From Escherichia phage Av-05: a stretch of DNA of 64,000 nucleotides. How positions within the stretch are numbered: position 1 is the first letter of the stretch; each line of letters starts with the position of its first letter. This document shows, in pieces, positions 18,215 through 63,450 of the stretch. Below the pieces are notes generated by a model. That model was not told the origin of the DNA. It did not search any database and worked only from the letters and a program-made list of their open reading frames with translations. The DNA is taken from the sequence record KM190144. One strand, given 5' to 3'. A program made the translations under genes and the position numbers.

Positions 18215-18216
18215 AT

Positions 18217-45825: not shown

Positions 45826-45928
45826 AATTTAACCACACAGGGAGGCTAACGCACGTAGTCTCCCATATGTCCCCATTTCAGGGACTATGTTATAGTAGTC
45901 CTAACAAAACAACAAAATGGAACCTAAA

Positions 45929-46192
45929 ATGAAAACTTTCAACGAATTCATCTCAGAATCGTCTGGTGTGAAAATTAACAAAGCGGTCAATCAGGTTATT
46001 GCTGATATTCTTAATTTGTATAACATTGACTTAACTCCGCATATCACGCTTGGTAACAAACGAAACTTTTTCATATTTAACACATCCGAACTTGACGAAA
46101 ATCAGTTCAATAACATTCAACGTTTTGCGAATGATAAAGGTCTTCGACATGAGCCTGGTGGCTATAAAAAATACGCAATATATTTGAAATAA
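45929..46192 (+). CDS. internal-protein-like small protein
   Basis: N-terminus MKTFNEFISES resembles the T4 internal protein capsid-targeting sequence. Confidence 0.4.
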   Translation: MKTFNEFISESSGVKINKAVNQVIADILNLYNIDLTPHITLGNKRNFFIFNTSELDENQFNNIQRFANDKGLRHEPGGYKKYAIYLK

Positions 46193-46252
46193 AGGTATAC
46201 AAGCCTATAGGACTATGTTATAGTAGTCCTATTAAAACATGAGGAGAATATT

Positions 46253-46558
46253 ATGAAATTAGGCGAAACCAACCGAATTGGTCTTTTTACAATATTTGCA
46301 TCACCTTTTTACGCAGCTCTTTCTGTTGCAGTATTACAAAAGGCTTACGATATGGATGGTGTTCCTGGTTTTGTATTCTTATCACCATTTTTATTATTCG
46401 TCGGGGCTTTGTTATTATATGCCACGACTAGTTTTGACCATAACGTCTGGGTTAATTATAAATGTAAATTGTCTGAAGAAGAACATGCAGAAGCTCGTAA
46501 AAAAGCTATTGAATCTACCAATCTAGAAAATTTCATTAAAGAATGCCGAGGAAAATAA
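46253..46558 (+). CDS. membrane protein
   Basis: hydrophobic helices. Confidence 0.3.
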   Translation: MKLGETNRIGLFTIFASPFYAALSVAVLQKAYDMDGVPGFVFLSPFLLFVGALLLYATTSFDHNVWVNYKCKLSEEEHAEARKKAIESTNLENFIKECRGK

Positions 46559-46559
46559 T

Positions 46560-47246
46560 ATGAATAGTTCTAAAGTGTTTAATAGTCAAGCTCGTGCAGT
46601 AGGTGGTTTTGCTCATAACGTACAAAATGACCAAATCAAAAATGAACCAATGTTCTTTAACTGTGATTTGAGTTTTGCTTGGGATAACGGTGGTCCAATT
46701 ACTCGTAGCTTTATCCAAAATCTCCCTGACGATTGGAAAGGCTCGGATGTAGTATTTGATTCACGAGTCCACATGCTGATGCCTGGTTGGTATCCTGCTA
46801 TTCCTGGATATCACCATGATGATGTTCCTCGCCCTGATATTCCAGTCGGCCAACACTTTATTACTGCAGGACAACCTGACTATGATAACCCTCGTTACCA
46901 TTCTGAACATATTCTTGGTCTTGTTAACGCTGATGTGTGTCCTACTCATTTTGCAACAGGAACTGCAGAGTTCAGTCAGATTCCTGATGGCGAACTTATC
47001 TATCGCCAGTGGCACAAAGAAGTCCTCGAAAAAATTGAAAAAGGTGAACTAGAGAAATGGGAAGCTCCGGACCGTACTCTTCTTCAGTTTGATTGGCAAA
47101 CATGGCACACTGGTTCTCGTGCAATTAGTAATGGATGGCGTTGGTTCGGACGTGTATCTCGTAATACAGACCGAGTTAAAAAGATTACTAATGAAATTCG
47201 TGTCAATGCTCAAGTTTATCTGGAATTCCCTATGGAAGGCTGGTAA
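46560..47246 (+). CDS. hypothetical protein
   Basis: 228-codon ORF, His/Asp/Trp-rich. Confidence 0.35.
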   Translation: MNSSKVFNSQARAVGGFAHNVQNDQIKNEPMFFNCDLSFAWDNGGPITRSFIQNLPDDWKGSDVVFDSRVHMLMPGWYPAIPGYHHDDVPRPDIPVGQHFITAGQPDYDNPRYHSEHILGLVNADVCPTHFATGTAEFSQIPDGELIYRQWHKEVLEKIEKGELEKWEAPDRTLLQFDWQTWHTGSRAISNGWRWFGRVSRNTDRVKKITNEIRVNAQVYLEFPMEGW

Positions 47247-47737
47247 TGATTAACAAAACATATTGGTCTAATATAGACGACGGTAATGAAGGTATTTCGT
47301 ACTATTCAGTAGATTGGACAGGATGTCCATCCTACTTAGTGAAACGTATTTGTCAAGAATTTAAAATCGACCAGCCAGCAGGTATTATCGTGAACAGATA
47401 CATTAATGGATATCAACCTATCGATGAAGTAATACGAACAACTCAAGCTGAGCTTGAAAAGTTTTTCAATAAGTGCCAATGGATAACAGGATGGATTATA
47501 TTTGTACCGTCGGTATGGTTTTTTAGTACTAAAGTAAGTGCCTTTGCCATACCAGATATTATCGCTATATTATTAGCATCTACTATCGTAAGTATTATTG
47601 GTGGTATTATTGGTGGAGGTACTATAGGCATCATTATTAATCTTGTTAAAAGTAGTTTACAGGAACGTAAAGACAAGATAAAGGCCAAGAATAATGAAGT
47701 TGAACGTTTTATTACCGAATGCAGGAATTTGAGATGA
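47246..47737 (+). CDS. membrane protein
   Basis: hydrophobic segment with GG(I/T)IG repeats. Confidence 0.3.
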   Translation: MINKTYWSNIDDGNEGISYYSVDWTGCPSYLVKRICQEFKIDQPAGIIVNRYINGYQPIDEVIRTTQAELEKFFNKCQWITGWIIFVPSVWFFSTKVSAFAIPDIIAILLASTIVSIIGGIIGGGTIGIIINLVKSSLQERKDKIKAKNNEVERFITECRNLR

Positions 47738-47970
47738 GTATAGCAATTTACATTAAATCAGAATCATGTGATAGTTATCTGTACACATATGATAAAGATG
47801 TGTCAGAAGAAAAAATCAAAGACGATCTTAATATGGACCTTGATATGTTCTGTCCTATTGCAGATTACAAACTTGCGGTTTCTAATAGTGAAAGTCCATC
47901 TAAAGAAACGCGCATTGAAGAATTTATGTCCGAATTAATGGCCAAATCATGGGACCGAGATGATGAGTAA
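47719..47970 (+). CDS. hypothetical protein
   Basis: 83-codon ORF. Confidence 0.3.
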   Translation: MQEFEMSIAIYIKSESCDSYLYTYDKDVSEEKIKDDLNMDLDMFCPIADYKLAVSNSESPSKETRIEEFMSELMAKSWDRDDE

Positions 47971-48418
47971 GAAAAATAAAGTGAAAGAACTATCAGCCGG
48001 TATTATCTTCATGACAAAAGATAAAGAGTTATTCATGGGCCGTGTAACTGGTTCTCGTCCTAAAGGTGCATTAGCTCATCGGTGGGATATTCCTAAAGGC
48101 CGTGTCGAGCCAGGTGAATCTCCTATTGAAGCCGCTATTCGTGAATGCGAAGAAGAAACTGGGTTTACACAATATGACCCTGCCTTCCTGAAAGACCTAG
48201 GCGAACATCATTACTCAGACAATAAGAATATTCATCTATTCCAATATACCATCCCTGTAGAGCACGAGCAATTCAGAAACAGTGTTTGTAATTCCTATCA
48301 TACATTCCCAGACGGACGACAGATTCCTGAATTTGATGCATTCGCTTTAATTAAACCTTCTCAATGGGAATATGTAATGGGCAAATCATTATATAAGGTG
48401 CTCACTACCATCCTATAA
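47960..48418 (+). CDS. nudE: Nudix hydrolase
   Basis: Nudix box GRVEPGESPIEAAIRECEEETG; immediately upstream of e as in T4. Confidence 0.6.
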   Translation: MMSKKNKVKELSAGIIFMTKDKELFMGRVTGSRPKGALAHRWDIPKGRVEPGESPIEAAIRECEEETGFTQYDPAFLKDLGEHHYSDNKNIHLFQYTIPVEHEQFRNSVCNSYHTFPDGRQIPEFDAFALIKPSQWEYVMGKSLYKVLTTIL

Positions 48419-48425
48419 GTAATAA

Positions 48426-48451
48426 ATACCTCCTATAAACGTAGGAGGTAT
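48426..48451 (+). promoter_or_regulatory. SD-sequestering hairpin with late-promoter-like TATAAACG in the loop
   Basis: perfect inverted repeat ATACCTCCTA/TAGGAGGTAT; 3' arm is the ribosome-binding site of e. Confidence 0.5.
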
Positions 48452-48452
48452 T

Positions 48453-48941
48453 ATGAATATATTTGAAATGCTTCGTAATGACGAAGGTCTTAGACTGACT
48501 TTATACAAAGACACCGAAGGCTTTTGGACGATTGGCATAGGCCATTTAGTAACAAAGAACCCGTCTTTAGCCGTAGCTAAAGCTGAACTTGACAGAATGA
48601 TCGGTCGTAAATGCAACGGTACAATTACCCTTGATGAGGCTGAAAAGCTATTTAATGAAGACGTCGATAAAGCCGTTCGCGGAATCTTGGGTAATGCTAA
48701 ACTTAAACCGGTATATGATTCTTTAGATGCGGTTCGTCGATGTGCATTGGTCAATATGGTCTTTCAAATGGGTGTAGCAGGCGTTGCTGGTTTTACTAAT
48801 TCTCTTCGTATGCTTCAACAGAAACGTTGGGATGAAGCGGCAGTAAATCTAGCCCAATCTAAATGGTATCGTCAGACACCTAATCGCGCGAAACGCGTAA
48901 TCTCAACATTTAAAACAGGAACTTGGAAAGCGTATATATGA
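48453..48941 (+). CDS. e: T4-type lysozyme (endolysin)
   Basis: about 80 percent identical by eye to T4 lysozyme (MNIFEMLR...EGLRL...YKDTEG...TIGIGHL...). Confidence 0.9.
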
Positions 48942-49219
48942 AAACATACAGTGAATTTTTATCAGAATCTATTCTTAACGAAGCTACTGACACATTTGCA
49001 ACTAAGCTAGGTGCAGCTTTAGTTGAAGCTGAAAGTCTATTAGCACGTATTTCTGAACTTGCCAGTAAGATAGATACTCGCAAATTTGAGCGCACCAGTG
49101 ATATCGTTAAGCTTGAAGCACTGCTGCGTATGTGCGATAAACCGGAAGAAATCGCTAAGAACGGCTCGTTAATGAAACAACGTCTTGAAAAATATATTTC
49201 AGGCGCTTCAGAAAAATAG
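48938..49219 (+). CDS. internal-protein-like protein
   Basis: N-terminus [11 protein letters not shown]; ATG overlaps the e stop (ATGA). Confidence 0.5.
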
Positions 49220-49220
49220 T

Positions 49221-49250
49221 GTTTACTTCCTCCAAGGGTTTTGATACTAT
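49221..49250 (+). promoter_or_regulatory. T4-early-type promoter
   Basis: -35 GTTTAC, 17-18 nt spacer, -10 TACTAT; spacer is inverted-repeat partner of the denV SD. Confidence 0.5.
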
Positions 49251-49277
49251 ACATCTATCAACTACTTGGAGGAAATT

Positions 49278-49691
49278 ATGACTCGTATCAATTTAACACT
49301 TGTTTCTGAACTGACCGACCAACATCTTATGGCTGAGTATCGTGAATTACCTCGTGTATTCGGTGCAGTCCGTAAACATGTTCAAAATGGTAAACGTGTA
49401 AAAGATTTTAAAATCTCTCCAACATTTATTTTAGGCACGGGCCACGTAACATTCTTTTACGACAAACTCGAATTTTTACGTTTACGTCAAATCGAGCTAA
49501 TAGCTGAATGTTTGAAACGTGGTTTCAAAATCAAGGACACGACAGTCCAGGATATTTCCGACATTCCTGTAGAATTTCGTAATAATTATGTCCCGTCCGA
49601 AGCGTCCATTGCGATAAGTCAAGCACGCTTAGATGAAAAAATTGCTCAACGTCCCACTTGGTACAAATACTATGGTAAATCAATTTACTAA
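49278..49691 (+). CDS. denV: endonuclease V (pyrimidine-dimer glycosylase)
   Basis: near-identical by eye to T4 endonuclease V ([12 protein letters not shown]...[16 protein letters not shown]...). Confidence 0.9.
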
Positions 49692-49697
49692 GGAAAA

Positions 49698-49958
49698 ATG
49701 AAAATGTATCAAGAATTTATCACTGAAGCGGATGCCAAAGACCCCAAATTTAAAGTTAAAGCTTTCATTGGTGATGCGGAAGACTTTGGCTCATTAAAAC
49801 GTAATGGGTATTCTTTCTTAGGTGGCGATGGTAAAGAAATCAACACCTATGCAAAACGTAGTGAAATTGCTTATGTTGTAGCAAGTCCTAAAGTAGATGC
49901 TGATGATATTGGATACGATTTTAACAACTTCGGAATTATTTCTGGCGGTAAAGCTTAA
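49698..49958 (+). CDS. internal-protein-like protein
   Basis: N-terminus MKMYQEFITEA. Confidence 0.5.
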   Translation: MKMYQEFITEADAKDPKFKVKAFIGDAEDFGSLKRNGYSFLGGDGKEINTYAKRSEIAYVVASPKVDADDIGYDFNNFGIISGGKA

Positions 49959-49961
49959 ATT

Positions 49962-49991
49962 GTTTACGCTTAAGTATTAATATGGTATAAT
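49962..49991 (+). promoter_or_regulatory. T4-early-type promoter
   Basis: -35 GTTTAC, about 18 nt spacer, -10 TATAAT. Confidence 0.45.
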
Positions 49992-50021
49992 TACTCTATC
50001 AAAACAAACAAGGAAACAAAA

Positions 50022-50600
50022 ATGAAAACATATAAAGAATTTATCGCCGAGGCCTTTGCAGGAAAAGCTCAAGGCATTAATAAGGACGAGTGGAATTATC
50101 GTGGCGGAAATGGTTTTGACCCTAAAACTGCTCCACTTGAACGATATCTAGCCACAAAAGCTTCTGATTTTAAAGCCTTCGCTTGGGAAGGACTACGCTG
50201 GCGTAACGATCTAAATATTGAAGTTGACGGACTTAAATTTGCTCATATTGAAGATGTTGTTGCTAGTAACTTAGACGCAGCTTTTGTTAAAGCCGACAGT
50301 GACCTTCGTCGCTGGAATTTAAAACTGTTCTCTAAACAAAAAGGCCCGAAGTTTGTGCCTAAAGCAGGTAAATGGGTCATTGATAATAAATTGGCTAAAG
50401 CTGTCAACTACGCTGGTCTTGAATTTGCCAAGCATAAATCATCATGGAAAGGTCTTGATGCAATGACTTTCCGTAAAGAATTTGCCGATGTTATGGCTAA
50501 AGGTGGCTTTAAGGCAGAAATAGATACCTCTAAAGGTACGTTTAAAGACGCTAATGTTCAGTACGCTTACGCCGTCGCTAATGCGGCCCGTGGTAATTAA
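50022..50600 (+). CDS. internal-protein-like protein
   Basis: N-terminus MKTYKEFIAEA matches the T4 capsid-targeting sequence. Confidence 0.5.
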   Translation: MKTYKEFIAEAFAGKAQGINKDEWNYRGGNGFDPKTAPLERYLATKASDFKAFAWEGLRWRNDLNIEVDGLKFAHIEDVVASNLDAAFVKADSDLRRWNLKLFSKQKGPKFVPKAGKWVIDNKLAKAVNYAGLEFAKHKSSWKGLDAMTFRKEFADVMAKGGFKAEIDTSKGTFKDANVQYAYAVANAARGN

Positions 50601-50629
50601 TAAGGCCTATTTACATTTAAAGGAAACAT

Positions 50630-50959
50630 ATGAAAACGTATCAAGAATTTATCACTGAAGTTACATTATCTGCGGAACAGAAAGCTGCTATCGAAGAAGG
50701 TAAAAATCCCAAAGTAACATATAAAGTAAATGGTAAAGGCGTTTTTGATGGCTTGGTTCAAGACCCTGAATTGAAAAAAGCTCTTTCTAAAACTAATGCA
50801 TACTTTGCTCCTAAATTTAACGCAGCTGGTGTACTTATTGGATTGGATGTATTCAACTCTAAAGGTGTTCTATCTAATGCCTTTGGTTATGCCGCTAACA
50901 AAATTACCAAAGCCGCATGGGAATCCAATACCAAACAAGCTCAAAAGCCTAGAGTATAA
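50630..50959 (+). CDS. internal-protein-like protein
   Basis: N-terminus MKTYQEFITEV. Confidence 0.5.
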   Translation: MKTYQEFITEVTLSAEQKAAIEEGKNPKVTYKVNGKGVFDGLVQDPELKKALSKTNAYFAPKFNAAGVLIGLDVFNSKGVLSNAFGYAANKITKAAWESNTKQAQKPRV

Positions 50960-51133
50960 TTCTTGCCTAATAAAGGGAAACGCAACCTCTCCTCATGAAC
51001 GTCGAGTCCTCTGAGTGATGTACCTTTTCCAACCTGTAATAAGGTCGAGCCCAAGTGCGGTAATGGGTTTACATAGCGAGTCGAAGGACCTAACATGTGC
51101 CATGGAATGGCCCCAACCTAAAAGAGAAACTAA

Positions 51134-51673
51134 ATGAGAACATTTTTAACCGGACCTTATCTATCCCTGATGAATGCTTTTACACACCATTCTGATGCTA
51201 GAGTAGAAGAAATTTGTAAGAACGGTTATGCCCCACCATTTGAAGACGTACTCAAGCAGTACTGTACACTTCGTTTAGACGGCGGCAGACAATCAGGTAA
51301 ATCGACCGCAGTAACTAATTTTGCTGTTAATTGGCTGTATGATGGCGGAACAGTTATTGTTCTTTCTAATACTTCAGCTTATTCTAAAATTTCTGCTGGC
51401 AACATTAAAAAAGAATTTTCTCGTTATTCTAGCGACGATATTCGATTCCGTTTATTTACTGATTCTGTTCGTAGTTTTATTGGCAATGAAGGTTCTAAAT
51501 TCCGTGGATTAACGCTTTCTCGTATTCTATACATAATTGACGAGCCTATTAAAGCTCCTGATATGGATAAGATTTACAATGTACATATTAAAACAGTCCA
51601 ACACTGTTGCAAAAGCAAATATTGCAACGGCGGTAATGCTCGTCCTCAATTTTTTGTGATTGGAATGCAATGA
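51134..51673 (+). CDS. P-loop NTPase-like protein
   Basis: Walker A GGRQSGKST and Walker B-like ILYIIDEP. Confidence 0.4.
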   Translation: MRTFLTGPYLSLMNAFTHHSDARVEEICKNGYAPPFEDVLKQYCTLRLDGGRQSGKSTAVTNFAVNWLYDGGTVIVLSNTSAYSKISAGNIKKEFSRYSSDDIRFRLFTDSVRSFIGNEGSKFRGLTLSRILYIIDEPIKAPDMDKIYNVHIKTVQHCCKSKYCNGGNARPQFFVIGMQ

Positions 51674-51978
51674 TGACCACTATTGAAGTTTTTGAGTATT
51701 GTTATAACAGCCCAGTATGCAATAAAAGGGCTCTTGTAGAAAATTACGAGATTTACCATTTTAAACCTAAACGATATCGTTTGACTAAAGGTCCGTTCGC
51801 AGGGCAGCAGGTTCTTTGTACTGCTCCTAATGCACGACTGATGACTAGTATTCCGCATTTCAAAATGGAATTTATTGATGGGCCATTTAAGGGATTAATC
51901 ACTCAAAGTTTAATGGCGTTTAATTCCGACCCATTTTTGATTAAAGAAAAAACTTGGATAAATTTATTTTCTAATTGA
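51670..51978 (+). CDS. hypothetical protein
   Basis: 102-codon ORF. Confidence 0.3.
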   Translation: MMTTIEVFEYCYNSPVCNKRALVENYEIYHFKPKRYRLTKGPFAGQQVLCTAPNARLMTSIPHFKMEFIDGPFKGLITQSLMAFNSDPFLIKEKTWINLFSN

Positions 51979-51984
51979 GGTTAT

Positions 51985-52347
51985 ATGAAAGCATATCAAA
52001 TTCTTGAAGGTACACATAAAGGCACTATTTATTTTGAAGACGGTACTCAAGCCCGGATTATTGTCTCTAAGACTTTTAAAGAAGACGCTATTGTAGACCC
52101 GGAAATTTTCTACGGTTTGAATGCCCGTGAAATTGAAATTGAACATCAACCTAAAGTTAAAATTGAAGGTGGTCAACATCTGAACGTTAACGTTCTGCGT
52201 CGGGAAACTCTGGAAGATGCAGTTAAGCATCCGGAAAAATATCCGCAGCTGACCATCCGTGTATCCGGTTATGCAGTTCGCTTTAACTCTCTGACTCCGG
52301 AACAGCAGCGCGACGTTATCGCTCGTACCTTTACTGAGAGTCTATAA
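51985..52347 (+). CDS. autonomous glycyl-radical cofactor (GrcA/YfiD-like; T4 Y06I-type)
   Basis: C-terminal 60 aa with RVSGYAVRF glycyl-radical motif appears identical to E. coli GrcA; codon usage shifts mid-gene. Confidence 0.7.
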
Positions 52348-52571
52348 TGGCTAAATTGATTATAGAAGGGTCTGAAGATGTTTTAAAATGTTTTGCCGCC
52401 TGGTTTAGTTGCTCAGGCGAGCAATCATTCACTGAAGCATTTAGAATGGGTGATATTACTGGAAACTATCCGACAACTGATATCATTGTACGTGGATATG
52501 GTATTAATGAGCCTATCCAATTGGTCGAATATGACCTTGCCACCGATGAGGAAATTCCTTATGTCGATTGA
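52347..52571 (+). CDS. hypothetical protein
   Basis: 74-codon ORF. Confidence 0.3.
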   Translation: MAKLIIEGSEDVLKCFAAWFSCSGEQSFTEAFRMGDITGNYPTTDIIVRGYGINEPIQLVEYDLATDEEIPYVD

Positions 52572-52827
52572 AGATATTAAAGGCTACAAGCCACATACCG
52601 ACGATAAAATAGGTAAAGTGAACGCTATTAAAGATGCAGAAGTCCGTCTTGGATTGATGTTTGATGCTCTGATTGAAGAAGCCTATATCTTGAAAGAAAA
52701 TGAAACAGAGCATCAAACCAAAGAAGATATGGATGCAGTGCAGGCTCTTAAGTACGCTAAGCAACATCTAAAAGAAGCCAGCATGTGGGCCTGTCGTGCA
52801 GTATTTCGTCCTGAGGAAAAATACTAA
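52560..52827 (+). CDS. hypothetical protein
   Basis: start at ATG 52560 overlapping the upstream gene end. Confidence 0.3.
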
Positions 52828-53042
52828 TGGCTTCTACTATTACTGGGTTATTGGACTTCCAGGAAAAGGTCAACAAAATTTGTAGTGAATACTTAAAGTA
52901 TCTTGAAGAAGACCTTGAAGATTGTAAGGAAGAAGGCGAAGAAGATTATGCTGACCAGCGTCGTCGCCAAATCGAAGAGATGAGACATTTCGCCGATATG
53001 GTATCTAAAGAATCTTGGACTTTAACTCCATTTTATCAATAA
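52827..53042 (+). CDS. hypothetical protein
   Basis: 71-codon ORF, acidic. Confidence 0.3.
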   Translation: MASTITGLLDFQEKVNKICSEYLKYLEEDLEDCKEEGEEDYADQRRRQIEEMRHFADMVSKESWTLTPFYQ

Positions 53043-53046
53043 AGTA

Positions 53047-53075
53047 GTTTACTTCTCCTCTAGTTGTGTTACTAT
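53047..53075 (+). promoter_or_regulatory. T4-early-type promoter
   Basis: -35 GTTTAC, 17 nt spacer, -10 TACTAT; spacer TTCTCCTCTAGTTG is the perfect inverted repeat of CAACTAGAGGAGAA at the regB SD. Confidence 0.55.
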
Positions 53076-53103
53076 AGACCTGTCAACTAGAGGAGAAATA
53101 AAA

Positions 53104-53562
53104 ATGACTATCAATTCGGAAGTTTTTATCCGTCGCAATAAACTCCGTCGAATCTTTGAAACGGAGTTTCGTCAAATCAATGCCGGTATAAAAGATGCTG
53201 CAAAGTCTCTTGGACTACCAGGCTTTCATATCAAGTATTCTCAACATCTCTTAGATCGTGCCATCCAGAGAGAAATAGATGAGAATTACGTTTTTGAATT
53301 ATTTCGTAAAGTAAAAAATCACGTTAAAGAAGTTGCAGAATTTTTATCAATGCCGGCACGTCCAGATGTTGATGAAGATTTTGTCGAAGGTGTCGAATAC
53401 CGCCCAGGCCGTTTAGAAATAACTGATGGAAATCTTTGGTTAGGCCTTACAGTTTGTCGCGAAAATCCGGCATTCAAAATGAAGACTCTTCAATGTAGAA
53501 TGGCTATTATTAACAATAAACGACTACCAGGAAAAGCTTCTAAAGCAGTGATTAAAATCTAG
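53104..53562 (+). CDS. regB: RegB endoribonuclease
   Basis: close match by eye to T4 RegB (MTIN.EVFIRRNKLRR...YSQHLLDRAIQREIDE...LQCRMAIIN..RLPGKASKAVIK). Confidence 0.85.
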   Translation: MTINSEVFIRRNKLRRIFETEFRQINAGIKDAAKSLGLPGFHIKYSQHLLDRAIQREIDENYVFELFRKVKNHVKEVAEFLSMPARPDVDEDFVEGVEYRPGRLEITDGNLWLGLTVCRENPAFKMKTLQCRMAIINNKRLPGKASKAVIKI

Positions 53563-53570
53563 AGGTAAAC

Positions 53571-54113
53571 ATGAGAAAAGCACTACTCGCTGGTCTATTT
53601 GCTCTTTCATTATCAGCACATAGCTCCGAGCATACTTTTAGTAATGTCCAACTCGATAACTTGAATTATGCTTATCAGTTTGGGGAACAATTTTCTAAGG
53701 ACGGAAAATTTAAAACGCATGAAAATATGCATAAGAAAGGACTTGGATACATAATGGCCGCAATACTATGGCAAGAATCATCTGCCGGTATTAATCTTAA
53801 AGATAAGAAAGGTCACCATGCGTATGGAATGTTCCAAAACTATCTACCAACAATGAGGGCAAGAATTAACCAGCTTGGTTATAATATGACTGATGCCCAA
53901 ATTAAGAAAATGCTATCTAAGCGGTCTAATTCAGCCAGATGGGCTTATATCGAATTTTCTTATTGGTTAAATATACATAACGGGGATATAAGAAAAGCTA
54001 TATCCTCATATAATGCGGGATGGAAGACAAGTGCTGGAAGTAAATATGCTTCTGAAGTCCTAGAAAAGGCTAATTACCTTAAATCAAATAAACTACTGGA
54101 AATAAAAGAATGA
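53571..54113 (+). CDS. secreted lytic-transglycosylase-like protein (T4 vs.1-like)
   Basis: signal peptide; position after regB. Confidence 0.45.
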   Translation: MRKALLAGLFALSLSAHSSEHTFSNVQLDNLNYAYQFGEQFSKDGKFKTHENMHKKGLGYIMAAILWQESSAGINLKDKKGHHAYGMFQNYLPTMRARINQLGYNMTDAQIKKMLSKRSNSARWAYIEFSYWLNIHNGDIRKAISSYNAGWKTSAGSKYASEVLEKANYLKSNKLLEIKE

Positions 54114-54457
54114 CCAAAATGTTGGCTTTAATAGTTAGCTTGGTTTCATTTAACGCTCTTGCTAATACTACATATACTGATGTAACGGAGTATACAAACA
54201 GAACGGCGTCTGATTACTGTGGTAAAAGTCAAGAGTGTAAAGTAGATTTTTCACAAAAATTGTTATATGCGTATAAAGACGGAGAAAAAGATGGGGCGTC
54301 TAGTAGGTTCAAGGCGTCTACCTTAATTAAACGATATCATAAAAAATGGCAAATATTAGAATGCTCGGTGGCGGAACCTAAAGATAAGGCAGCATGCAAT
54401 TCTATGGTGGACCGTCTAGTTGACTCTTATACTAGAGGACTTGTAGCAAGTGATTAA
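54110..54457 (+). CDS. secreted protein
   Basis: signal peptide MTKMLALIVSLVSFNALA. Confidence 0.35.
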   Translation: MTKMLALIVSLVSFNALANTTYTDVTEYTNRTASDYCGKSQECKVDFSQKLLYAYKDGEKDGASSRFKASTLIKRYHKKWQILECSVAEPKDKAACNSMVDRLVDSYTRGLVASD

Positions 54458-54917
54458 AAACTATATCAAGGGCGATATTGTCGCCCTGTTTTCTAAAGGT
54501 AATAATATTGCTCATGGGTGCAATTGTTTTCATACAATGGGCGCCGGTGTAGCAGGTCAATTGGCAAAGGCTTATCCAAAAATTCTGGAAGCCGATAAAC
54601 TTCAAACTGAATTCGGAGACGAGTCTAAACTTGGGACTTATTCGGTTTATGAAAAATATTTTAAGACTCATAAAGCTTATTGCTTTAATCTTTATACTCA
54701 GTTTGAGCCGGGACCTAATTTTGAGTACTCTGCTTTAATGAATTGTATAATAGAATTAAATGAATTCGGAAAAAATAAGATAACAAAGCCTGTGATTTAC
54801 ATGCCAAGAATTGGAGCAGGTATAGGTGGTGGAAACTGGGATATCATTGAAGAAATTCTTGATACATATTCCACTAAACTAGAAATTGTGATTGTTGATT
54901 GGGAACCATTGTTATGA
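54450..54917 (+). CDS. macro-domain protein
   Basis: NIAHGCNCFHTMGAGVAGQLAKAYP and IGAGIGGGNW motifs; paralog of 37696-38217. Confidence 0.55.
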   Translation: MIKNYIKGDIVALFSKGNNIAHGCNCFHTMGAGVAGQLAKAYPKILEADKLQTEFGDESKLGTYSVYEKYFKTHKAYCFNLYTQFEPGPNFEYSALMNCIIELNEFGKNKITKPVIYMPRIGAGIGGGNWDIIEEILDTYSTKLEIVIVDWEPLL

Positions 54918-55126
54918 ATGTGCATTATCCTCACCCGTATGACCCAAAGAATAAAGCAGTTATTATTCGTGAATGGGAAGAAATTCGTCAGACTAAGTGT
55001 CCTATTAACACCCCTCACGATGTTGAACGTCGTTATCATGGACGCTTTATGGAATATACCTTTATTGATAAGAAAGGTCGTAAAAAGCATGTCGAAGAAT
55101 ATTGCATGCAGGTCAAATGGTTATGA
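54899..55126 (+). CDS. small conserved protein (paralog of 41007-41222)
   Basis: shared HPYDPKNKAVIIREWEE...EYTFIDKKGRKKHVEEY. Confidence 0.4.
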   Translation: MGTIVMNVHYPHPYDPKNKAVIIREWEEIRQTKCPINTPHDVERRYHGRFMEYTFIDKKGRKKHVEEYCMQVKWL

Positions 55127-55329
55127 GCCAAACAAAAATTCTTACAGGTGCTAAATGCGAAAAATGCGAATGGCCTGTAGTTTTTGCTTTATGCAATGAC
55201 GAAATGGCTTGTGATTTTGATTATTGGTGTTACTGTTCGAACAAAGGTTGTAGCAATCATAAAGGTGAAGGGTTTTACTCAGGATTTTACCCTTACCCAG
55301 ATTTCGTTAAAGAAGGTGAACCTAAATGA
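55102..55329 (+). CDS. Cys-rich small protein
   Basis: 75 aa with CxxC pairs. Confidence 0.3.
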   Translation: MHAGQMVMSQTKILTGAKCEKCEWPVVFALCNDEMACDFDYWCYCSNKGCSNHKGEGFYSGFYPYPDFVKEGEPK

Positions 55330-55508
55330 AATTGACTAAAGAAGAGAAAACTAAACTGTTCGAACTTATCCATGACCTATTGGATGAGCAAGCAGCCACC
55401 AATGCGTACGATGAATATGCTCCTTTAACAGACGAAGAATATCAAGCATTGATGGAATCATTTGACAGGAAAGAACAAGAACTCATTGACTACGTGAATT
55501 CACTATAA
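55326..55508 (+). CDS. hypothetical protein
   Basis: 60-codon ORF. Confidence 0.3.
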   Translation: MKLTKEEKTKLFELIHDLLDEQAATNAYDEYAPLTDEEYQALMESFDRKEQELIDYVNSL

Positions 55509-55517
55509 GGGACTCTT

Positions 55518-56099
55518 ATGGCTAGTTTAATTTTTACCTATGCCGCTATGAACGCTGGTAAGTCTGCTTCATTACTTACTGCCGCACATAACTATAAAGA
55601 ACGTGGCATGGGTGTATTAGTTCTTAAACCGGCTATTGATACTCGCGATTCAAAAGGTGAAATAGTCTCTCGTATTGGTATTCGTCAGGATGCCAATATA
55701 ATTACAAAAGACATGGATATCTTTGAATTTTATAAATGGGCTGCAGCACAAAAGGATATTCACTGTGTATTTGTTGACGAAGCTCAGTTCTTAACTACTG
55801 AAAAGGTGTATCAACTTAGTCGTATTGTTGACGTATACAATGTGCCGGTAATGGCATACGGACTACGAACAGATTTTAAAGGTAATCTATTTGAAGGTTC
55901 TCAAGCATTAATGGCTATTGCCGATAAGCTTGTTGAACTTAAAGGTGTCTGTCATTGCGGTAAAAAGGCCACAATGGTAGCTAGAGTCACGGAAGACGGA
56001 CTTCCAATTACAGATGGCAGTCAAATTGAAATTGGTGATACCGATAGATACGTGTCATTATGCCGGAAGCATTGGAATGATTTGACAGGGTTGTTATAA
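55518..56099 (+). CDS. tk: thymidine kinase
   Basis: MASLIFTYAAMNAGKS P-loop, VFVDEAQF, C-terminal CHCG...C zinc motif; close to T4 Tk by eye. Confidence 0.9.
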   Translation: MASLIFTYAAMNAGKSASLLTAAHNYKERGMGVLVLKPAIDTRDSKGEIVSRIGIRQDANIITKDMDIFEFYKWAAAQKDIHCVFVDEAQFLTTEKVYQLSRIVDVYNVPVMAYGLRTDFKGNLFEGSQALMAIADKLVELKGVCHCGKKATMVARVTEDGLPITDGSQIEIGDTDRYVSLCRKHWNDLTGLL

Positions 56100-56126
56100 A
56101 TACTAATATCTAACCAAGAGGTATAT

Positions 56127-56339
56127 ATGCAGCAATTAAACGAAAGACAACTTCGTAATCTTACTGTAACCCAATTGGACGAAATCCGAAGAGAATTAGG
56201 ACATTCTATTTCTCATTTAAACGAGGATATTCGTCAAACTGGTTCTAAAGCTGATTATACACGCAAGCGCAAGCTGGAAAAATACCTCGCAGATGTTAAG
56301 GCCGTTCAAAGGCGAAAAATAAATACTGGCCAAAATTAA
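56127..56339 (+). CDS. hypothetical protein
   Basis: 70-codon ORF, basic. Confidence 0.3.
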
Positions 56340-56351
56340 CAGGAGGCCTAT

Positions 56352-56654
56352 ATGGCCTTAAGAGCGATAGCTGTCATGGCGATGCTGGGGTTTTTTGCAG
56401 CAACAACTCCTATTGTTGGCACTGCATATGTTGACCCGTACTTTGATAACTTTATGGAATCAGGGATTAAAAACGTATATACTTTGTTCGAAATTCAAAA
56501 TGTTGAGAATTCTGAAAAATTTTATAAGTATATGGCAAAGCATTACAAAAATAGCCCCTGTGATGATGCATTTGAATGTCATGAACAAGGCATAAAAACT
56601 GCCAGAAAATTTGCTGAGTTCATGAAAATAAAATTAGAGCCTACATCTATCTAA
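56352..56654 (+). CDS. secreted protein
   Basis: signal peptide MALRAIAVMAMLGFFAA. Confidence 0.35.
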   Translation: MALRAIAVMAMLGFFAATTPIVGTAYVDPYFDNFMESGIKNVYTLFEIQNVENSEKFYKYMAKHYKNSPCDDAFECHEQGIKTARKFAEFMKIKLEPTSI

Positions 56655-56660
56655 TTTACT

Positions 56661-56690
56661 AGCCCCTTCCGAAAGGTTGGGGCTTTTTTG
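56661..56690 (+). terminator. rho-independent terminator
   Basis: AGCCCC-ttccgaaaggtt-GGGGCT then TTTTTG. Confidence 0.55.
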
Positions 56691-56699
56691 CATCTATCA

Positions 56700-56728
56700 G
56701 TTTACTTCTCCTCAGGTTGTGTTATAGT
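56700..56728 (+). promoter_or_regulatory. T4-early-type promoter
   Basis: -35 GTTTAC, 17 nt spacer, -10 TATAGT; spacer TTCTCCTC is complementary to the downstream SD GAGGAGAA. Confidence 0.5.
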
Positions 56729-56755
56729 AGACCTTACTTACTAGAGGAGAACGTT

Positions 56756-56935
56756 ATGTCACGTAAAGAAAAAATTTCTAAGTTAATGTTTTTGATTGAA
56801 GAGTACGCTAACGCTGTATCCGATTGGGAAAATGCCCATGGGTGTGAAGACGGTGATATCGATATCAATAAGGCAATGAAAAAGATGGCTGATACGCACA
56901 CTGAATTGCAAATGTATGTTAACGAGATTATGTGA
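56756..56935 (+). CDS. hypothetical protein
   Basis: ATG at 56756 with GAGGAG SD. Confidence 0.35.
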   Translation: MSRKEKISKLMFLIEEYANAVSDWENAHGCEDGDIDINKAMKKMADTHTELQMYVNEIM

Positions 56936-56942
56936 GGATATT

Positions 56943-57149
56943 ATGCTTTACGATTATACTGGAAAATCTGAAGACGGTGTACTTGAACTTTTACCTGAAA
57001 GCGCTGAAGATGATGATATGGTGGCGATGTTTTGTAAAAATGGTCCTGGGGATAAGGGATGGATTTATCTTCGACAAGAAAATGACTTAATTGTTTTGGA
57101 CCCTAAACAAGTTGAAGAACTTTATCAACATTTAAAACACAATCGGTAG
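56943..57149 (+). CDS. hypothetical protein
   Basis: ATG at 56943 with GAGGAT SD, overlaps the upstream stop. Confidence 0.3.
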   Translation: MLYDYTGKSEDGVLELLPESAEDDDMVAMFCKNGPGDKGWIYLRQENDLIVLDPKQVEELYQHLKHNR

Positions 57150-57180
57150 TTTACATCTTGGTAGGACTAAAAAAAAAATT

Positions 57181-57690
57181 TTAAGATGCTTCTAATTCAG
57201 ATTTAAGATCAGCAATCATCTTTTCAAAGGATTTGTTCTTAGTCAGTGTAACACCTTTAGAAAGTGCAAACTCAACTAATCTATCTTTACTACCTTTTTT
57301 ATCAGCTTCATCATTCAGAGACATTGCTTCCTCTAAAATCAGATCAATAGATAGATTTTCTTTGTCATCCTTTTTATCTTGCACTTCTACAATCTTGGCA
57401 TCAACTGCCTTACCCATACTATTTGGATTAGGAATATCTTTGTTAAAGAATACAATATAAGAACCCATACGAATAGTAGAGTGCTGTGCATCAACATCAA
57501 GACCAGACATCTCAGCAAGAGCAGTGAAAAACTCAACAGTGTTTCTGAATGCCTTGTGTTGTGTCCCCACACATAAACCATTCAAAGGCAGTCTTGCAGA
57601 TACCGCTGCATTCAATTGTGGTGCATATGCTCCGAAAAACTTAAACAGTTCCACTTTATTAGGGAAAATACGATAATTTTGATTTGCCAT
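57181..57690 (-). CDS. hypothetical protein (head-module associated?)
   Basis: 169-codon ORF downstream of the major capsid gene. Confidence 0.35.
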   Translation of the reverse strand: MANQNYRIFPNKVELFKFFGAYAPQLNAAVSARLPLNGLCVGTQHKAFRNTVEFFTALAEMSGLDVDAQHSTIRMGSYIVFFNKDIPNPNSMGKAVDAKIVEVQDKKDDKENLSIDLILEEAMSLNDEADKKGSKDRLVEFALSKGVTLTKNKSFEKMIADLKSELEAS

Positions 57691-57764
57691 AAAATCTCCT
57701 TTTATTCCTTAGTAAAAACCACTTGACAACACAGGATAAGTGGCTATTATTAAGGTCAGAATGT

Positions 57765-57794
57765 GAAAAAGGGGAGGTGATAATTCACCTCCCC
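57765..57794 (-). terminator. rho-independent terminator after major capsid gene
   Basis: 10-bp stem GGGGAGGTGA/TCACCTCCCC, followed on the minus strand by a U-run. Confidence 0.55.
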
Positions 57795-57820
57795 TCATTA
57801 GAGGTAGCATTTAAGCTATC

Positions 57821-58834
57821 TTATGCGAAAGTACCAGTAGAACGTACAACCAGTTCAGGACGGGTGTTAACCGTCAGGAAGGAAGTTTCAGATTCAACTT
57901 TCTCTTCACGCAGATATGCAGAAGATTTGTACCACAGATACAGTTCTTCAGCTACAGTGTTTGCTTCACGAACATCATCTGCCGGAGCATAATGGATCTG
58001 GAACATATCATCAATACCTTGCGGCAGGATGTATGCTTCACCATCTGGGATATATCCAGAGATGTCTTCAATGTAGGTTACGTTCTTATGAACAAACATA
58101 CGGTTGTTGGCATTCTCAGAACCCATACCCAGACGACGACGCAGCGGTTCTTGGGTAGAAGAGTAATACTGGTAAGCGTTCATGATCAGCGGGTGGGCGA
58201 TCAGAGCAGAGAACCATTTACGAGAAGCCAGAACAATGATATTATAGTTATTGCCGTTATCACCTGCATTGTCGATGATGTATGCACGAGCGTCTTTCTC
58301 AATCAGATCAGACGGGTCAACTGCAACATCTGTGAAGTTGATATTGGCAGTATGCTGGGTAACTCCCCACTCAGTAAAGTAGTTGTACTGTGCGGTCGGA
58401 TCTTGTGGAGACCATGATTTACCCATGATTGCCTGAACCATTGCTTTTTCTTTCAGTTGTTCATGAGAAACGCGAATACGCTTAACTACGCGAGCAACTA
58501 CGTCTTCAACAGTTCTCGGAGCGTCCGTAGTGAAGTATTTACGGAAGTTCTGAACATCTGCCGCAGTGATCTGACGATCCAGAGGGAAGAACGGAATGTT
58601 GAAGTTCTTGATTTGGGCTTTTTCACTACCCACATAGTTACGTTCTCCACCACGACGACGTGCAGGAATATCCGCAACAATTTCGTCAACACGCTCAACA
58701 CGAGCAATTGTGGTTTCACCATGGTAGGCGGTGAACAGATCCATGTTGGTAATCAGGCGATACTGACGTGGAACAAGTTCCAGTGCTGCGCCAAGGTTTA
58801 CGATTTGAAAGTCGTTAGTCTGTACTGCTGCCAT
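57821..58834 (-). CDS. major capsid protein (lambda gpE-like)
   Basis: 337 aa; several segments parallel lambda gpE; highly expressed-type codon usage. Confidence 0.6.
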   Translation of the reverse strand: MAAVQTNDFQIVNLGAALELVPRQYRLITNMDLFTAYHGETTIARVERVDEIVADIPARRRGGERNYVGSEKAQIKNFNIPFFPLDRQITAADVQNFRKYFTTDAPRTVEDVVARVVKRIRVSHEQLKEKAMVQAIMGKSWSPQDPTAQYNYFTEWGVTQHTANINFTDVAVDPSDLIEKDARAYIIDNAGDNGNNYNIIVLASRKWFSALIAHPLIMNAYQYYSSTQEPLRRRLGMGSENANNRMFVHKNVTYIEDISGYIPDGEAYILPQGIDDMFQIHYAPADDVREANTVAEELYLWYKSSAYLREEKVESETSFLTVNTRPELVVRSTGTFA

Positions 58835-58857
58835 TTATAAATTCTCCTTGATGCAAA

Positions 58858-59280
58858 TTAGCTGATAGCCGTTACTTTAATATCTTCAGAACCATCGAAA
58901 TATTTATCGGTGATTTTCAGACCTCTTGCCTCAAGAGCTTTAATAGCAGTCTCGTCAATTCCTGTGGAACCATCAGAGAACACAATCTTGGACTTATTCA
59001 GAGTAAGGCCACGAACAGCAACAACAAAATTATATTTGGTTCCTACTTTGAACGGGGTAACAGGTTCGTATGCAGGTACAAGGTCATGGTCAACCAGAAC
59101 ACCATAAGCCTGAGCAGCATCACCAGATGCAGCTAAAGTACCGTCTTCTTTAACGATCATACCTGCTTTCATACCTGCTGCGTACTGAATCTCCATTTCC
59201 TTGAAGCTATAGCCTTGGTCAGAAGAATCAACTTTACCCAGTACAATGTCAGAGTAGAAACCTTGAATTGGATTAGCCAT
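58858..59280 (-). CDS. head decoration protein (gpD-like)
   Basis: 140 aa between scaffold and capsid genes. Confidence 0.45.
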   Translation of the reverse strand: MANPIQGFYSDIVLGKVDSSDQGYSFKEMEIQYAAGMKAGMIVKEDGTLAASGDAAQAYGVLVDHDLVPAYEPVTPFKVGTKYNFVVAVRGLTLNKSKIVFSDGSTGIDETAIKALEARGLKITDKYFDGSEDIKVTAIS

Positions 59281-59298
59281 TTATTTAATCTCCTCGAA

Positions 59299-60300
59299 TT
59301 ACGCTTTCATTGCAGCCGCTTCGCGTGCACGGGCGCGAGCTTTTTCTACGTTGGCTTTCAGAATATCTTCAGCAGACTTATTAATGTCGTCTGTAGTAGC
59401 TTCAGCACCGGAACCATGTTCAGCGGTAGCAAATTCTTTTTTCACAGTCTTAACTTCTTCTTCAAGTTCCTTAATACGAGCCTGTGCTTTTTCCAGAATA
59501 GCCACCACAGGAGCATTAGCTTTCTCGATAATAAAGTTAGCCAGTGCTTCATGATCAGAGTCAGCAGCGAAAGTGAAAGTTTTTGCTTTATTCAGAGCTT
59601 CTTTCTTTTCCACTTCAACGGCAGCTTTGATAATTTCATCAGCTTTAGCAGCTTTGGCTTCAGCTTCTTCTAATTTTTTAACCAGATCCAGATATTCCTG
59701 AGATTTGGTCACATCAACATTATTAGACACTGAGGTCTCCTCTTTTTTCTTGGATTTATCAACTACAGGTTTTGAACCTGCTTCTTTGACGACCCCAGTC
59801 ACCTGGAGATCTTTATCATCACCCTCTACGAAAGTGACTCCTAATTCTGCAACACCTTTTTCAAACAATTGTTGTAATTTTAGCAACTCATATTGTTTAG
59901 CGAGATCTAATTCTTTACCTTCGTGAGCAGCTTTAGCAATTGTTATTGCTTGCACGCGTTCTTCAAGAAATTCTTGATGTTGTGCATTCCATGCCACAAT
60001 AAATTCATCATCAGGGTTTTGCGCCGCATCGTATTCAAGTTCAGTTTCAAAACCAAGAAGTTTTGCCAGCAGTTCTGCATCATCATGCCACATGTAGAAG
60101 AATCTACGCAGAAATTCTTCAAAGCTCATTGTAACAGTTACTTGCTGGAGGGCTTTGATAACGTCTTTAGTAAGCTGCTCAGGTTTAAGATCAGACTTCA
60201 TAAGAAGTGATACTGGTCTTAAATTAGCAGAATACCCTTGAAGCTCATGACACAGTGCAATACCCTTCTCCTTAATGGCTTTGGCCTTTACAATTGTCAT
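59299..60300 (-). CDS. scaffolding protein
   Basis: 333 aa, Ala/Glu/Lys-rich coiled coil; between protease and decoration genes. Confidence 0.5.
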   Translation of the reverse strand: MTIVKAKAIKEKGIALCHELQGYSANLRPVSLLMKSDLKPEQLTKDVIKALQQVTVTMSFEEFLRRFFYMWHDDAELLAKLLGFETELEYDAAQNPDDEFIVAWNAQHQEFLEERVQAITIAKAAHEGKELDLAKQYELLKLQQLFEKGVAELGVTFVEGDDKDLQVTGVVKEAGSKPVVDKSKKKEETSVSNNVDVTKSQEYLDLVKKLEEAEAKAAKADEIIKAAVEVEKKEALNKAKTFTFAADSDHEALANFIIEKANAPVVAILEKAQARIKELEEEVKTVKKEFATAEHGSGAEATTDDINKSAEDILKANVEKARARAREAAAMKA

Positions 60301-60986
60301 TCGTCCTCTTCCTCTGTTTCATCTAGATAACCCAGACATTCGATACCGAAATCAACATCTGTTATTTCTCCTGTTGCTGTGTCCACACGCCCAGAGCACT
60401 GGATGCTTAAACCACCAACAACATTTGCTTTTTTCAAATCCCACAAAGCAGGATCATTATACTTAACCTTGGCTACCCATGTTCCTGCTTTAATTATCTG
60501 TTCCGTCCCAATGACCACAACATCCAGTTCTTCTTGAATCCAAGTTTTTTCAATAGTGAATGCATCAGTCTCGCTAAGATGGAATAAATTTTCTTTCACC
60601 AAACCAGCAGCGAGTGCCTTATCGTAGGATTCTTTTGCCTTTACTATCGTTTCAGGAGACATCCACTCTCCATGGGCATCCTTAGTGTTTGGCTCATAAA
60701 TAACCTCATAAGAGATCATTTGTTCCGCATCTTTTTGGATATTAACTACAGATGTTTCTTTATTAAGACTCTTTTTAAGATTTAGAGATAAAACTCTCTC
60801 AGAAGCCTTTTCTACAGAAATTTCTGGAGAATGGCCTGAGGCAATCAGGCCATTAGCGATATTCAGTATCTTGCTCTTTTGAACAAGAGACAGATCAGAT
60901 ACTGATGAAGGAAGGTCTTTAATGCTTTTAAATTTCATTATTTCCCCATTAACAGTTATTTTAACATCGTTCTTTTTCTTTTGCAA
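60297..60986 (-). CDS. prohead protease
   Basis: 229 aa between portal and scaffold; acidic C-terminus. Confidence 0.45.
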   Translation of the reverse strand: MQKKKNDVKITVNGEIMKFKSIKDLPSSVSDLSLVQKSKILNIANGLIASGHSPEISVEKASERVLSLNLKKSLNKETSVVNIQKDAEQMISYEVIYEPNTKDAHGEWMSPETIVKAKESYDKALAAGLVKENLFHLSETDAFTIEKTWIQEELDVVVIGTEQIIKAGTWVAKVKYNDPALWDLKKANVVGGLSIQCSGRVDTATGEITDVDFGIECLGYLDETEEEDE

Positions 60987-61007
60987 GTTATTTCAGAAGG
61001 TTGAGTG

Positions 61008-62549: not shown

Positions 62550-62564
62550 GAATTATCCCCTCTG

Positions 62565-63350: not shown

Positions 63351-63398
63351 GGGAGGATTATCGAATCCTTGTATTCAAGGTTGGACGCAACGCCAACC

Positions 63399-63450
63399 CC
63401 CGCACCGCTACGTGCTGCTGCATGTCACCAGCAGCACGTAGTGGTGCGGG
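63399..63450. repeat. 22-bp palindrome with 8-nt loop (one G-T pair)
   Basis: CCCGCACCGCTACGTGCTGCTG / CAGCAGCACGTAGTGGTGCGGG; each arm continues into sequence resembling the 3' end of pol intron 2. Confidence 0.8.

Follow-up and report, generated by a model that had tools for sequence, protein, structure and literature searches.

Introduction

T-even coliphages, as is known for T4, degrade host DNA and use modified cytosine; in marker rescue and in insertion/substitution recombination, the T4 enzymes exchange short homologous segments with non-phage, cytosine-containing DNA present in the cell. The T4 protein Y06I, the product of gene vs.6, is activated by the activase of pyruvate formate-lyase (PFL) and restores PFL cleaved by oxygen (Wagner et al. 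2001, as cited in PMC8683613). In its Escherichia coli homolog, GrcA or YfiD, the disordered residues 1-60 assist in binding and activation, and residues 61-127 form the structured radical domain (PMC8683613). T4-like cyanophages carry a host-derived metabolic gene, psbA, whose patchy GC (guanine plus cytosine) content has been attributed to intragenic recombination with host-type sequence (PMC3900582). Here we consider the ortholog of vs.6 in a 64,000-nucleotide (nt) stretch of Escherichia phage Av-05 (sequence record KM190144; below, the window, meaning the whole stretch analysed). We argue that this gene, located at 51985..52347 on the plus strand, is an old phage copy of grcA, whose homologous 3' block has probably been replaced by the host grcA via recombination.

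Work on T4 has already established the gene and its biochemical role, and we report nothing new on function. The papers that we searched deal with what Y06I does and with how vs.6 is conserved in T4-like phages; they contain no description of the mosaic described below, although it may have been noticed earlier.

A host-identical tract with sharp boundaries

The gene encodes a 120-amino-acid stand-alone GrcA-like glycyl-radical protein and matches gp230 of Escherichia phage phiC120, annotated as "autonomous glycyl radical cofactor GrcA", with 100% identity. Residues E61-L120, the glycyl-radical motif RVSGYAV included, are identical to residues E68-L127 of E. coli GrcA. The original prediction, made from the letters of the window, had equated the last 60 codons with the E. 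coli gene, and this was borne out both for the protein (60 of 60 residues) and for the DNA, as 173 of 175 nucleotides coincide over gene nt 179-353 (52163..52337, plus strand). This segment, below called the tract, encodes the structured glycyl-radical domain. Extending the comparison to gene nt 179-363, we observe five differing sites (195, 219, 354, 357, and 360; 97.3% identity). Immediately upstream, at gene nt 133-178, there are 20 mismatches per 46 nt (26/46, or approximately 57% identity), and hence the 5' break at gene nt 178/179 (window 52162/52163) is sharp. A block of host-level identity with sharp internal boundaries is present within the phage gene.

The tracts of T4, RB51, and OES_C-3 are 175/175 identical to E. 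coli grcA. The two differences seen in the window tract are private synonymous substitutions, CAC to CAT at gene nt 195 (52179, plus strand) and CGT to CGG at gene nt 219 (52203, plus strand). Neither T195 nor G219 occurs in any of 5,426 E. coli genomes (best identity 98.9%), and both are absent from the closest relative, L101, whose tract matches E. coli at 175/175 positions. A different donor allele was considered as their source and rejected, as 0 of the 5,426 genomes share either state; T195 and G219 are new mutations that arose within the phiC120 lineage.

The 3' end of the tract is marked by the last 10 nt of the gene (52338..52347, plus strand), where comparison with phage homologs identifies the phage-native states G354, T357, and A360. 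All three recur in the homologs from Slopekvirus and Pseudotevenvirus; G354 and A360 are also found in Jiaodavirus. The mosaic of these last positions is G354/T357/A360 in phiC120, A354/T357/T358 in T4, G354/T357/T358 in RB51, and G354 only in OES_C-3.

Donor and direction of the transfer

The C-terminal 60 residues of GrcA are nearly invariant in Enterobacterales and Pasteurellales; thus, identity of the proteins proves little, and it is the synonymous sites that decide. The comparison set comprised 80 bacterial grcA genes plus Salmonella, Cronobacter, and several Klebsiella alleles. The window tract is 98.9% identical to grcA of E. coli, 94.3% to that of E. albertii, 92% to Citrobacter, 91.4% to Salmonella, and 86.3% to Klebsiella. 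For the 83 non-E. coli grcA genes encoding nearly the same C-terminal peptide, the best identity is 94.3%, and the median, 85%; the match to E. coli is far closer than constraint on the protein would produce. The same gradient is observed for the E. coli-type phage tracts overall (E. coli, 98.9-100%; E. albertii, 94-95%; Salmonella, 91%; Klebsiella, 86-87%). The T4 tract shows no synonymous divergence from E. coli (dS=0), to be compared with a dS of 0.18 between E. coli and E. albertii, and 0.46 between E. coli and Salmonella. The donor of the tract is E. coli proper.

As for the direction, the two halves of E. coli grcA are 97.5% and 95.4% identical to those of E. albertii, and 88.4% and 91.4% identical to those of Salmonella, and no phage record covering at least 80% of the host grcA was found. 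Since both halves of the E. coli gene follow the same gradient and no phage record covers that much of it, the transfer proceeded from the host to the phage and involved the 3' block only.

Distribution among phages and age of the tract

In at least 486 phage records from Tequatrovirus and Mosigvirus, T4 included, the final 185 nt of E. coli grcA are present with 95-99.5% identity; among the matches listed, every tract starts at E. coli nt 200, which corresponds to phage nt 179. Hence, the proposal of a recent recombination with the host gene holds insofar as the 3' half is E. coli grcA DNA, but the event is not private to this phage, being clade-wide and shared with T4 and RB51. An identity to the host gene no higher than that of other T-even Y06I genes had been named as evidence against a transfer. 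Compared with T4, the identity is indeed no higher; an excess is seen only relative to distant T-even relatives, whose tracts are 73-86% identical to any host.

The genomes of phiC120 (Mosigvirus) and RB51 (Tequatrovirus) have on average 78.5% identity over 7 kilobases (kb) around vs.6. Identity is 63-82% for vs.7 and vs.5 on either side and approximately 90% for the 5' part of vs.6, whereas the tract, at 98.9%, forms the regional maximum (top 0.3% of windows). Between phiC120 and T4 there are 18 differences per 178 nt in the 5' part and 2 per 175 nt in the tract (Fisher p=3e-4), the respective dS values being 0.40 and 0.07 (p=0.005). The tract is thus younger than the split of the phages carrying it.

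Phage-native tracts, 73-86% identical to the best host, are observed in Karamvirus-like loci, Slopekvirus, Pseudotevenvirus (RB43, EC-F2, JC03), Krischvirus RB49, and T5-like phages; this baseline consists of the named lineages and others in an 80-locus IMG/VR sample, with one exception, a contig with a bacterial-type gene. In Enterobacter phage EC-F2, Cronobacter phage JC03, and Klebsiella phage 150040 the C-terminal 60 residues are identical but written in different codons; RB43 differs at 2 of the 60 residues. The suggestion that recombination had given the phage its spare-part function did not hold, as these phage-native versions encode the same residues; the function pre-dates the host exchange.

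Several records deserve separate mention. The E. coli-type tract is carried at 97-98% identity by Yersinia phage PYps32T, Citrobacter phage PhiZZ6, and Salmonella phage SG1, and a Klebsiella-type tract, by the Salmonella-isolated Jiaodavirus PSE-D1, so that the tract may report the evolutionary host history better than the isolation host. In the IMG/VR sample, contig L128 contains a gene whose N-terminus, MITGI, is of the bacterial type and whose tract has 91% identity with an allele from Yersinia, and contigs L169-L176 contain longer open reading frames (ORFs) of 124-184 amino acids that end in the glycyl-radical domain. These are probably not phage genes, but host DNA or prophage-flanking sequence.

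Klebsiella-type tracts and discordant gene halves

A Klebsiella-type tract is situated at the same place in the Jiaodaviruses KEN25_1, Roth66, KP179, and the above-mentioned PSE-D1, all with the same N-terminal type. These tracts are 95-97% identical to alleles of the Klebsiella pneumoniae complex, which differ among themselves by 1-7%, and 86-89% identical to E. coli. They have Klebsiella-specific LLDAVEH codons and a GC content at third codon positions (GC3) of 54-62%. In total, 60 phage records match one Klebsiella grcA allele at 95-99%. The Jiaodavirus tract starts at approximately nt 181-186 and ends at approximately nt 342 (nt 348 in PSE-D1), and in all cases a phage-native end encoding TEAL follows. 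Judging from these sequences, host exchange happened independently in E. coli and Klebsiella phages, that is, at least twice.

The donor fits the host lineage in Tequatrovirus and Mosigvirus (E. coli-type) and in Jiaodavirus (Klebsiella-type), but not so for Enterobacter, Cronobacter, and Salmonella phages. A Salmonella-derived tract was considered as a candidate and rejected, since the best phage matches to Salmonella grcA have 90-95% identity, where the E. coli-type tract (91%) also falls.

The two halves of the gene are discordant in three phage pairs (Fisher tests), and in both directions. KP179 and Roth66 differ at 2 of 178 positions in the 5' part and at 10 of 175 in the tract (p=0.02); for the Slopekviruses SnakeER16 and 150040, these numbers are 5 of 178 and 22 of 175 (p=5e-4). 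Such discordant histories suggest repeated exchange. The 3' endpoints of the tract vary both among Jiaodaviruses and among Tequatroviruses. Of the seven polymorphic sites in three close Jiaodaviruses, four coincide with Klebsiella polymorphisms, which is suggestive only, as the sample is too small. Many events of transfer from host to phage, or fewer such events followed by shuffling between phages at the same hinge, would fit the data alike, and the data do not separate them.

A smaller patch was observed in Snake_ER16 (L087), whose 5' part is 97% identical to that of 150040 (L095). At gene nt ~229-243 it encodes LLDAVEH (CTG at nt 229-231, G at nt 241) in an otherwise native tract, and 150040 has EDAVKH there. 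This could be either a micro-conversion or a convergent adaptation to the Klebsiella PFL or its activase PflA.

Nucleotide composition and codon usage

The predicted compositional step within the gene was found: GC content rises from 35.0% in the 5' part (GC3 24%) to 49.1% in the tract (GC3 41%), and E. coli grcA over the matching 175 nt also has 49.1%. Composition statistics were computed on the T4-like (phiC120) part of the window alone (18 kb, 38.6% GC); there, the tract ranks by GC content among the highest 0.85% of 175-nt windows, and the GC step, among the highest 0.3% of positions. Leucine is encoded by CTG in 5 of 6 cases in the tract, against 11-15% in phage ORFs.

However, the native RB43-type tracts (RB43, EC-F2) also have 48-49% GC, and for this reason composition, considered as the main evidence, was downgraded to supporting. 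It is informative only through the Karamvirus-like loci, with tracts of approximately 41% GC, and Jiaodavirus, with 54-57%. Thus, of the GC-richer, host-like codon usage originally noted in the 3' half, the step and the preference for CTG are real, but the step is only partly diagnostic, the native RB43-type tracts being equal in GC.

An RNA-level cause of the nucleotide conservation was also considered and rejected: there is no Rfam match in 50500-53500 at E<=1, and promoter- and terminator-like sites are not above the shuffled expectation.

The N-terminal half and the identity of the gene

The phage-native 5' part (gene nt 1-178, amino acids 1-60; 51985..52162, plus strand) is not matched by DNA from any of the 5,426 E. 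coli genomes. Its product, on the other hand, is not foreign to GrcA. It aligns with YfiD's N-terminal half with an hhalign probability of 94% (E=9e-8 with one target compared; 32% identity across 44 columns), and BLASTP yields 35% identity over 40 amino acids. The N-terminal half is therefore a real, diverged homolog of YfiD residues 1-60, the homology being weak yet consistent. The description of the first 60 codons as AT-rich and divergent is correct as far as it concerns the 35% GC and the identity next to the break, but not if taken to mean an unrelated sequence. The N-terminus MKAYQILEG... recurs in the homologs from Jiaodavirus, Slopekvirus, and Pseudotevenvirus. The boundary between the disordered and structured parts of YfiD, where strong conservation of the protein starts, is a few codons away from the break in the mosaic (E. 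coli residue 67/68).

Conserved position in the cluster and high identity identify the ORF at 51985-52347 as the T4 vs.6/Y06I ortholog, in agreement with the initial designation of Y06I as a GrcA homolog. At the nucleotide level it is 93.7% identical to the T4 gene over all 363 nt and 94.2% identical to the RB51 gene, which bears the name vs.6. The gene order is T4-like: e, denV, internal proteins, vs.8, vs.7, vs.6, vs.5, vs.4, vs.3, regB, vs.1, vs, tk.4, tk (names of neighbours were taken from the phiC120 and RB51 annotation). The protein matches Pfam PF01228 (Gly_radical) at amino acids 59-101 with 67.3 bits (gathering cut-off, 22.2), and PDB 6owr, the nuclear magnetic resonance structure of E. 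coli YfiD, at E=2e-42, compared with 3e-26 for PFL. With the NCBIfam equivalog TIGR04365 (spare_glycyl) it scores 159.1 bits, below the cut-off of 170, because the N-terminal half, which alone matches no family, has diverged.

The RVSGYAV motif (amino acids 92-98; 52258..52278, plus strand) contains the radical glycine, Gly95 (codon 52267-52269), and is invariant across all 85 bacterial GrcA sequences compared. The C-terminal tail of 20 residues is of the GrcA type, not the PflB type, and is identical to that of E. coli GrcA. The ORF is small and stand-alone (120 amino acids, ~14 kDa), without the catalytic barrel, and is flanked by unrelated small ORFs. It has its own ribosome-binding site, GAGG, at 51977-51980 (plus strand), and at its end the stop codon and the vs.5 start overlap in TAATG.

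By analogy with T4 Y06I, the product is best regarded as a GrcA-type spare part, and this assignment is supported by the above matches. The host activase PflA would install the glycyl radical in the phage protein, and the C-terminal domain would then plug into host PFL cleaved by oxygen at its radical glycine, so that fermentative production of acetyl-CoA and formate could be kept running during infection.

Proposed scenario and alternative explanations

The observations could be linked as follows. Strong constraint on the C-terminal part of the protein would keep the 3' halves of the phage and host genes approximately 80-85% alike in DNA, while the disordered N-terminal half would drift freely, beyond recognition. 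The longest perfect runs shared by RB43 and E. coli are approximately 17-20 nt (from the mismatch list), and such residual homology could permit rare pairing of host DNA with the phage gene, that is, homologous recombination in the manner of natural "marker rescue". In this way the whole homologous block, nt 179-353, would have been swapped for E. coli grcA DNA, the exchange stopping on the 5' side where homology ends, and on the 3' side approximately 10 nt before the stop codon. The same process would have occurred independently in the Klebsiella Jiaodaviruses with Klebsiella grcA. At the protein level the exchange is neutral in E. coli phages, and in Jiaodavirus it imported two host-specific residues.

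Once a host-identical tract (100% over 175 nt) had been established, re-conversion would become much easier, and hence both Mosigvirus and Tequatrovirus, which differ by approximately 21% nearby, would have an almost unmutated E. coli tract. A separate matter is whether the chromosomal grcA of whichever host the phage replicates in keeps converting the 3' half of vs.6, again and again; to this we give a substantial chance, somewhat short of even. Several observations weigh against the proposed scenario, or against its simplest form. No Salmonella-type tract was found in any sequenced phage, and Enterobacter and Cronobacter phages keep native tracts; thus, the exchange does not occur everywhere. 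Donor alleles cannot be distinguished, as E. coli grcA varies too little. The 5' breakpoint, identical among the E. coli-type phages listed, fits a single ancestral event with subsequent spread equally well. Finally, the flanks of the tract are now almost without host homology (57% on the left, 10 nt on the right), and hence a simple crossover model needs either annealing and trimming or a more host-like ancestral gene.

The single-event variant would be one recent capture in the common ancestor of T4 and Mosigvirus, followed by spread from phage to phage during co-infection, with no continuing exchange with the host. We consider it plausible, though on balance doubtful. It readily accounts for the same 5' breakpoint (E. 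coli nt 200, phage nt 179) in at least 486 records and for the star-like, private character of substitutions relative to the E. coli allele; besides, T-even phages recombine freely, and the whole of vs.6 (5' part, 90%) is better conserved between the genera than its flanks (63-82%). It is at odds with the differing 3' endpoints of phiC120 (G354/T357/A360), T4 (A354/T357/T358), and OES_C-3 (G354 only), and with those of Jiaodavirus, where PSE-D1 is host-like through nt 348 and the others only to nt 342; the independent Klebsiella-type tract would moreover require host exchange at least twice. If no transfer had happened at all, the gene would be ancient and frozen by purifying selection or by preference for host codons. 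The near-invariance of the C-terminal 60 amino acids in Enterobacterales, Pasteurellales, and most phage homologs, as well as the 48-49% GC of some native phage tracts, agree with this, but bacteria with the same peptide differ at 5-25% of bases, phage-native tracts encoding it reach only 73-86% identity with any host, and dS of the T4 tract is 0 to E. coli against 0.18 to E. albertii. No Rfam family or nucleotide-level element that could impose such a constraint was found, and as the identity at synonymous sites is specific to one host species, which refutes it, this explanation is very improbable.

Equally hard to credit is the reverse transfer, with E. coli acquiring the 3' half of grcA from a T-even phage. 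Identity alone indeed gives no direction, but the position of the E. coli tract is that expected from the species tree, E. albertii being its nearest neighbour, followed by Citrobacter and Salmonella and, further off, by Klebsiella, and both halves behave alike; the phage-native state in other genera is far from E. coli, and Klebsiella phages carry a Klebsiella-type sequence. As the window is a composite of two unrelated phages (see below), the quality of the source assembly is questionable, and host reads might have been merged into the phage assembly at a conserved motif. However, the composite junction, at approximately 45.9 kb, is 6 kb away, hundreds of genomes sequenced independently of one another, those of T4 and RB phages among them, show the same in-frame mosaic, and the tract bears private substitutions of the phage lineage absent from all 5,426 E. 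coli genomes, which leaves the chance of an artefact negligible. Replacement of the 3' block of an old phage gene by host grcA thus remains the preferred explanation.

On this explanation, vs.6 would be a clean case, and one that can be quantified, in which a strictly virulent T-even phage exchanged DNA with the host chromosome inside a gene, with both boundaries of the tract set by the reach of protein-constrained homology. It suggests a rule, that extreme conservation of a protein keeps the phage and host copies recombinable, and a possible use of the tract as a marker of the host genus for T-even phages. If conversion does continue, the phage gene would evolve in concert with the host gene, the tract being a record of the recent host genus and a natural, measurable read-out of recombination between a virulent phage and the host chromosome. 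Marked synonymous sites in the 175-nt tract could serve as an easy system for the frequency of phage-host recombination, both in nature and in the laboratory.

Other features of the window

The window is composite. Its region of approximately 6.3-45.9 kb is ~95% identical to Escherichia phages TH18, 18-1-2, 19-1-2, and 24-2-1 and belongs to a different myovirus type (a family-A-like, that is, PolA-type, polymerase, primase/helicase, rIIA, tail fibres), and positions 46,206-64,000 are 100% identical to phiC120. Related records end (at positions 19 and 71) exactly at the junction, ~45,890-46,206, which suggests two joined contigs rather than a natural recombinant. The vs.6 ortholog lies 6 kb inside the phiC120 part and is unaffected. 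In the T4-like part, megablast against the 5,426 E. coli genomes revealed no other host-identical DNA, the tract being the sole such DNA there.

Between the two phage matches there is an ORF of a T4-type internal head protein (45917-46192), flanked by two copies (45,882-45,911 and 46,207-46,236) of a palindromic intergenic motif (TAGGACTATGTTATAGTAGTCCTA-like), which recurs in phiC120 at 157,282-157,311 and 158,580-158,609. We take it to resemble the promoter/stem-loop cassettes through which, as has been proposed, modules are shuffled in T4-type genomes.

In 1,302 of the 5,426 E. coli genomes there is DNA that matches the region 14,278-18,411 with 83-94% identity. It lies in chromosomes and in plasmid records of ~92-100 kb annotated with genes of phage type: ead/Ea22-like, DUF968, metallophosphoesterase, and DUF4752. 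The non-T4 phage of the first 46 kb of the window shares this module with phage-like elements in E. coli.

Upstream of vs.8, a 175-nt intergenic region (50,960-51,133) has ~50% GC in a 38.6% GC genome and is partly conserved with RB51. It was considered as a structured RNA or a host patch and rejected as either (fold z-scores +1.2 and +0.7; no tRNA, Rfam hit, or E. coli match). At the end of the window, and cut by it, there is a group I intron (63,785-64,000; Rfam RF00028, 71.2 bits against the gathering score of 50); given the order of the T4 map, we presume that it may belong to the gene of anaerobic ribonucleotide reductase, another glycyl-radical enzyme.

Comparison with known systems

The nearest counterpart of the gene is T4 vs.6 itself. 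Y06I has an equal length, the same neighbours (vs.7 and vs.5), identical C-terminal 60 amino acids, and an E. coli-derived tract with an equal 5' breakpoint. It differs by six amino-acid changes, all in the N-terminal half, by the two private synonymous changes of the window tract, and by the mosaic of the last 10 nt. With E. coli GrcA/YfiD (6OWR) the phage protein shares identical residues 68-127 and the arrangement of a disordered N-terminal half and a structured glycyl-radical domain. Its N-terminal half, however, is only ~32-35% identical and 7 residues shorter, and the genomic context is different: E. coli grcA sits between ung and eamB, and the phage gene, in an early-gene cluster.

As a mosaic, the gene is of a kind most closely represented by the cyanophage psbA genes. 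The vs.6 case differs in that its hosts are enterobacteria and that there is a single 175-nt block, bounded by the limits of protein-imposed homology; its T-even coliphages also break down the DNA of the host and contain modified cytosine, as is known for T4. As a process, it may be compared with T4 marker rescue, a precedent from the laboratory, which uses cloned, fully homologous T4 fragments on plasmids; vs.6 would have received its tract from a diverged chromosomal paralog, in a natural event.

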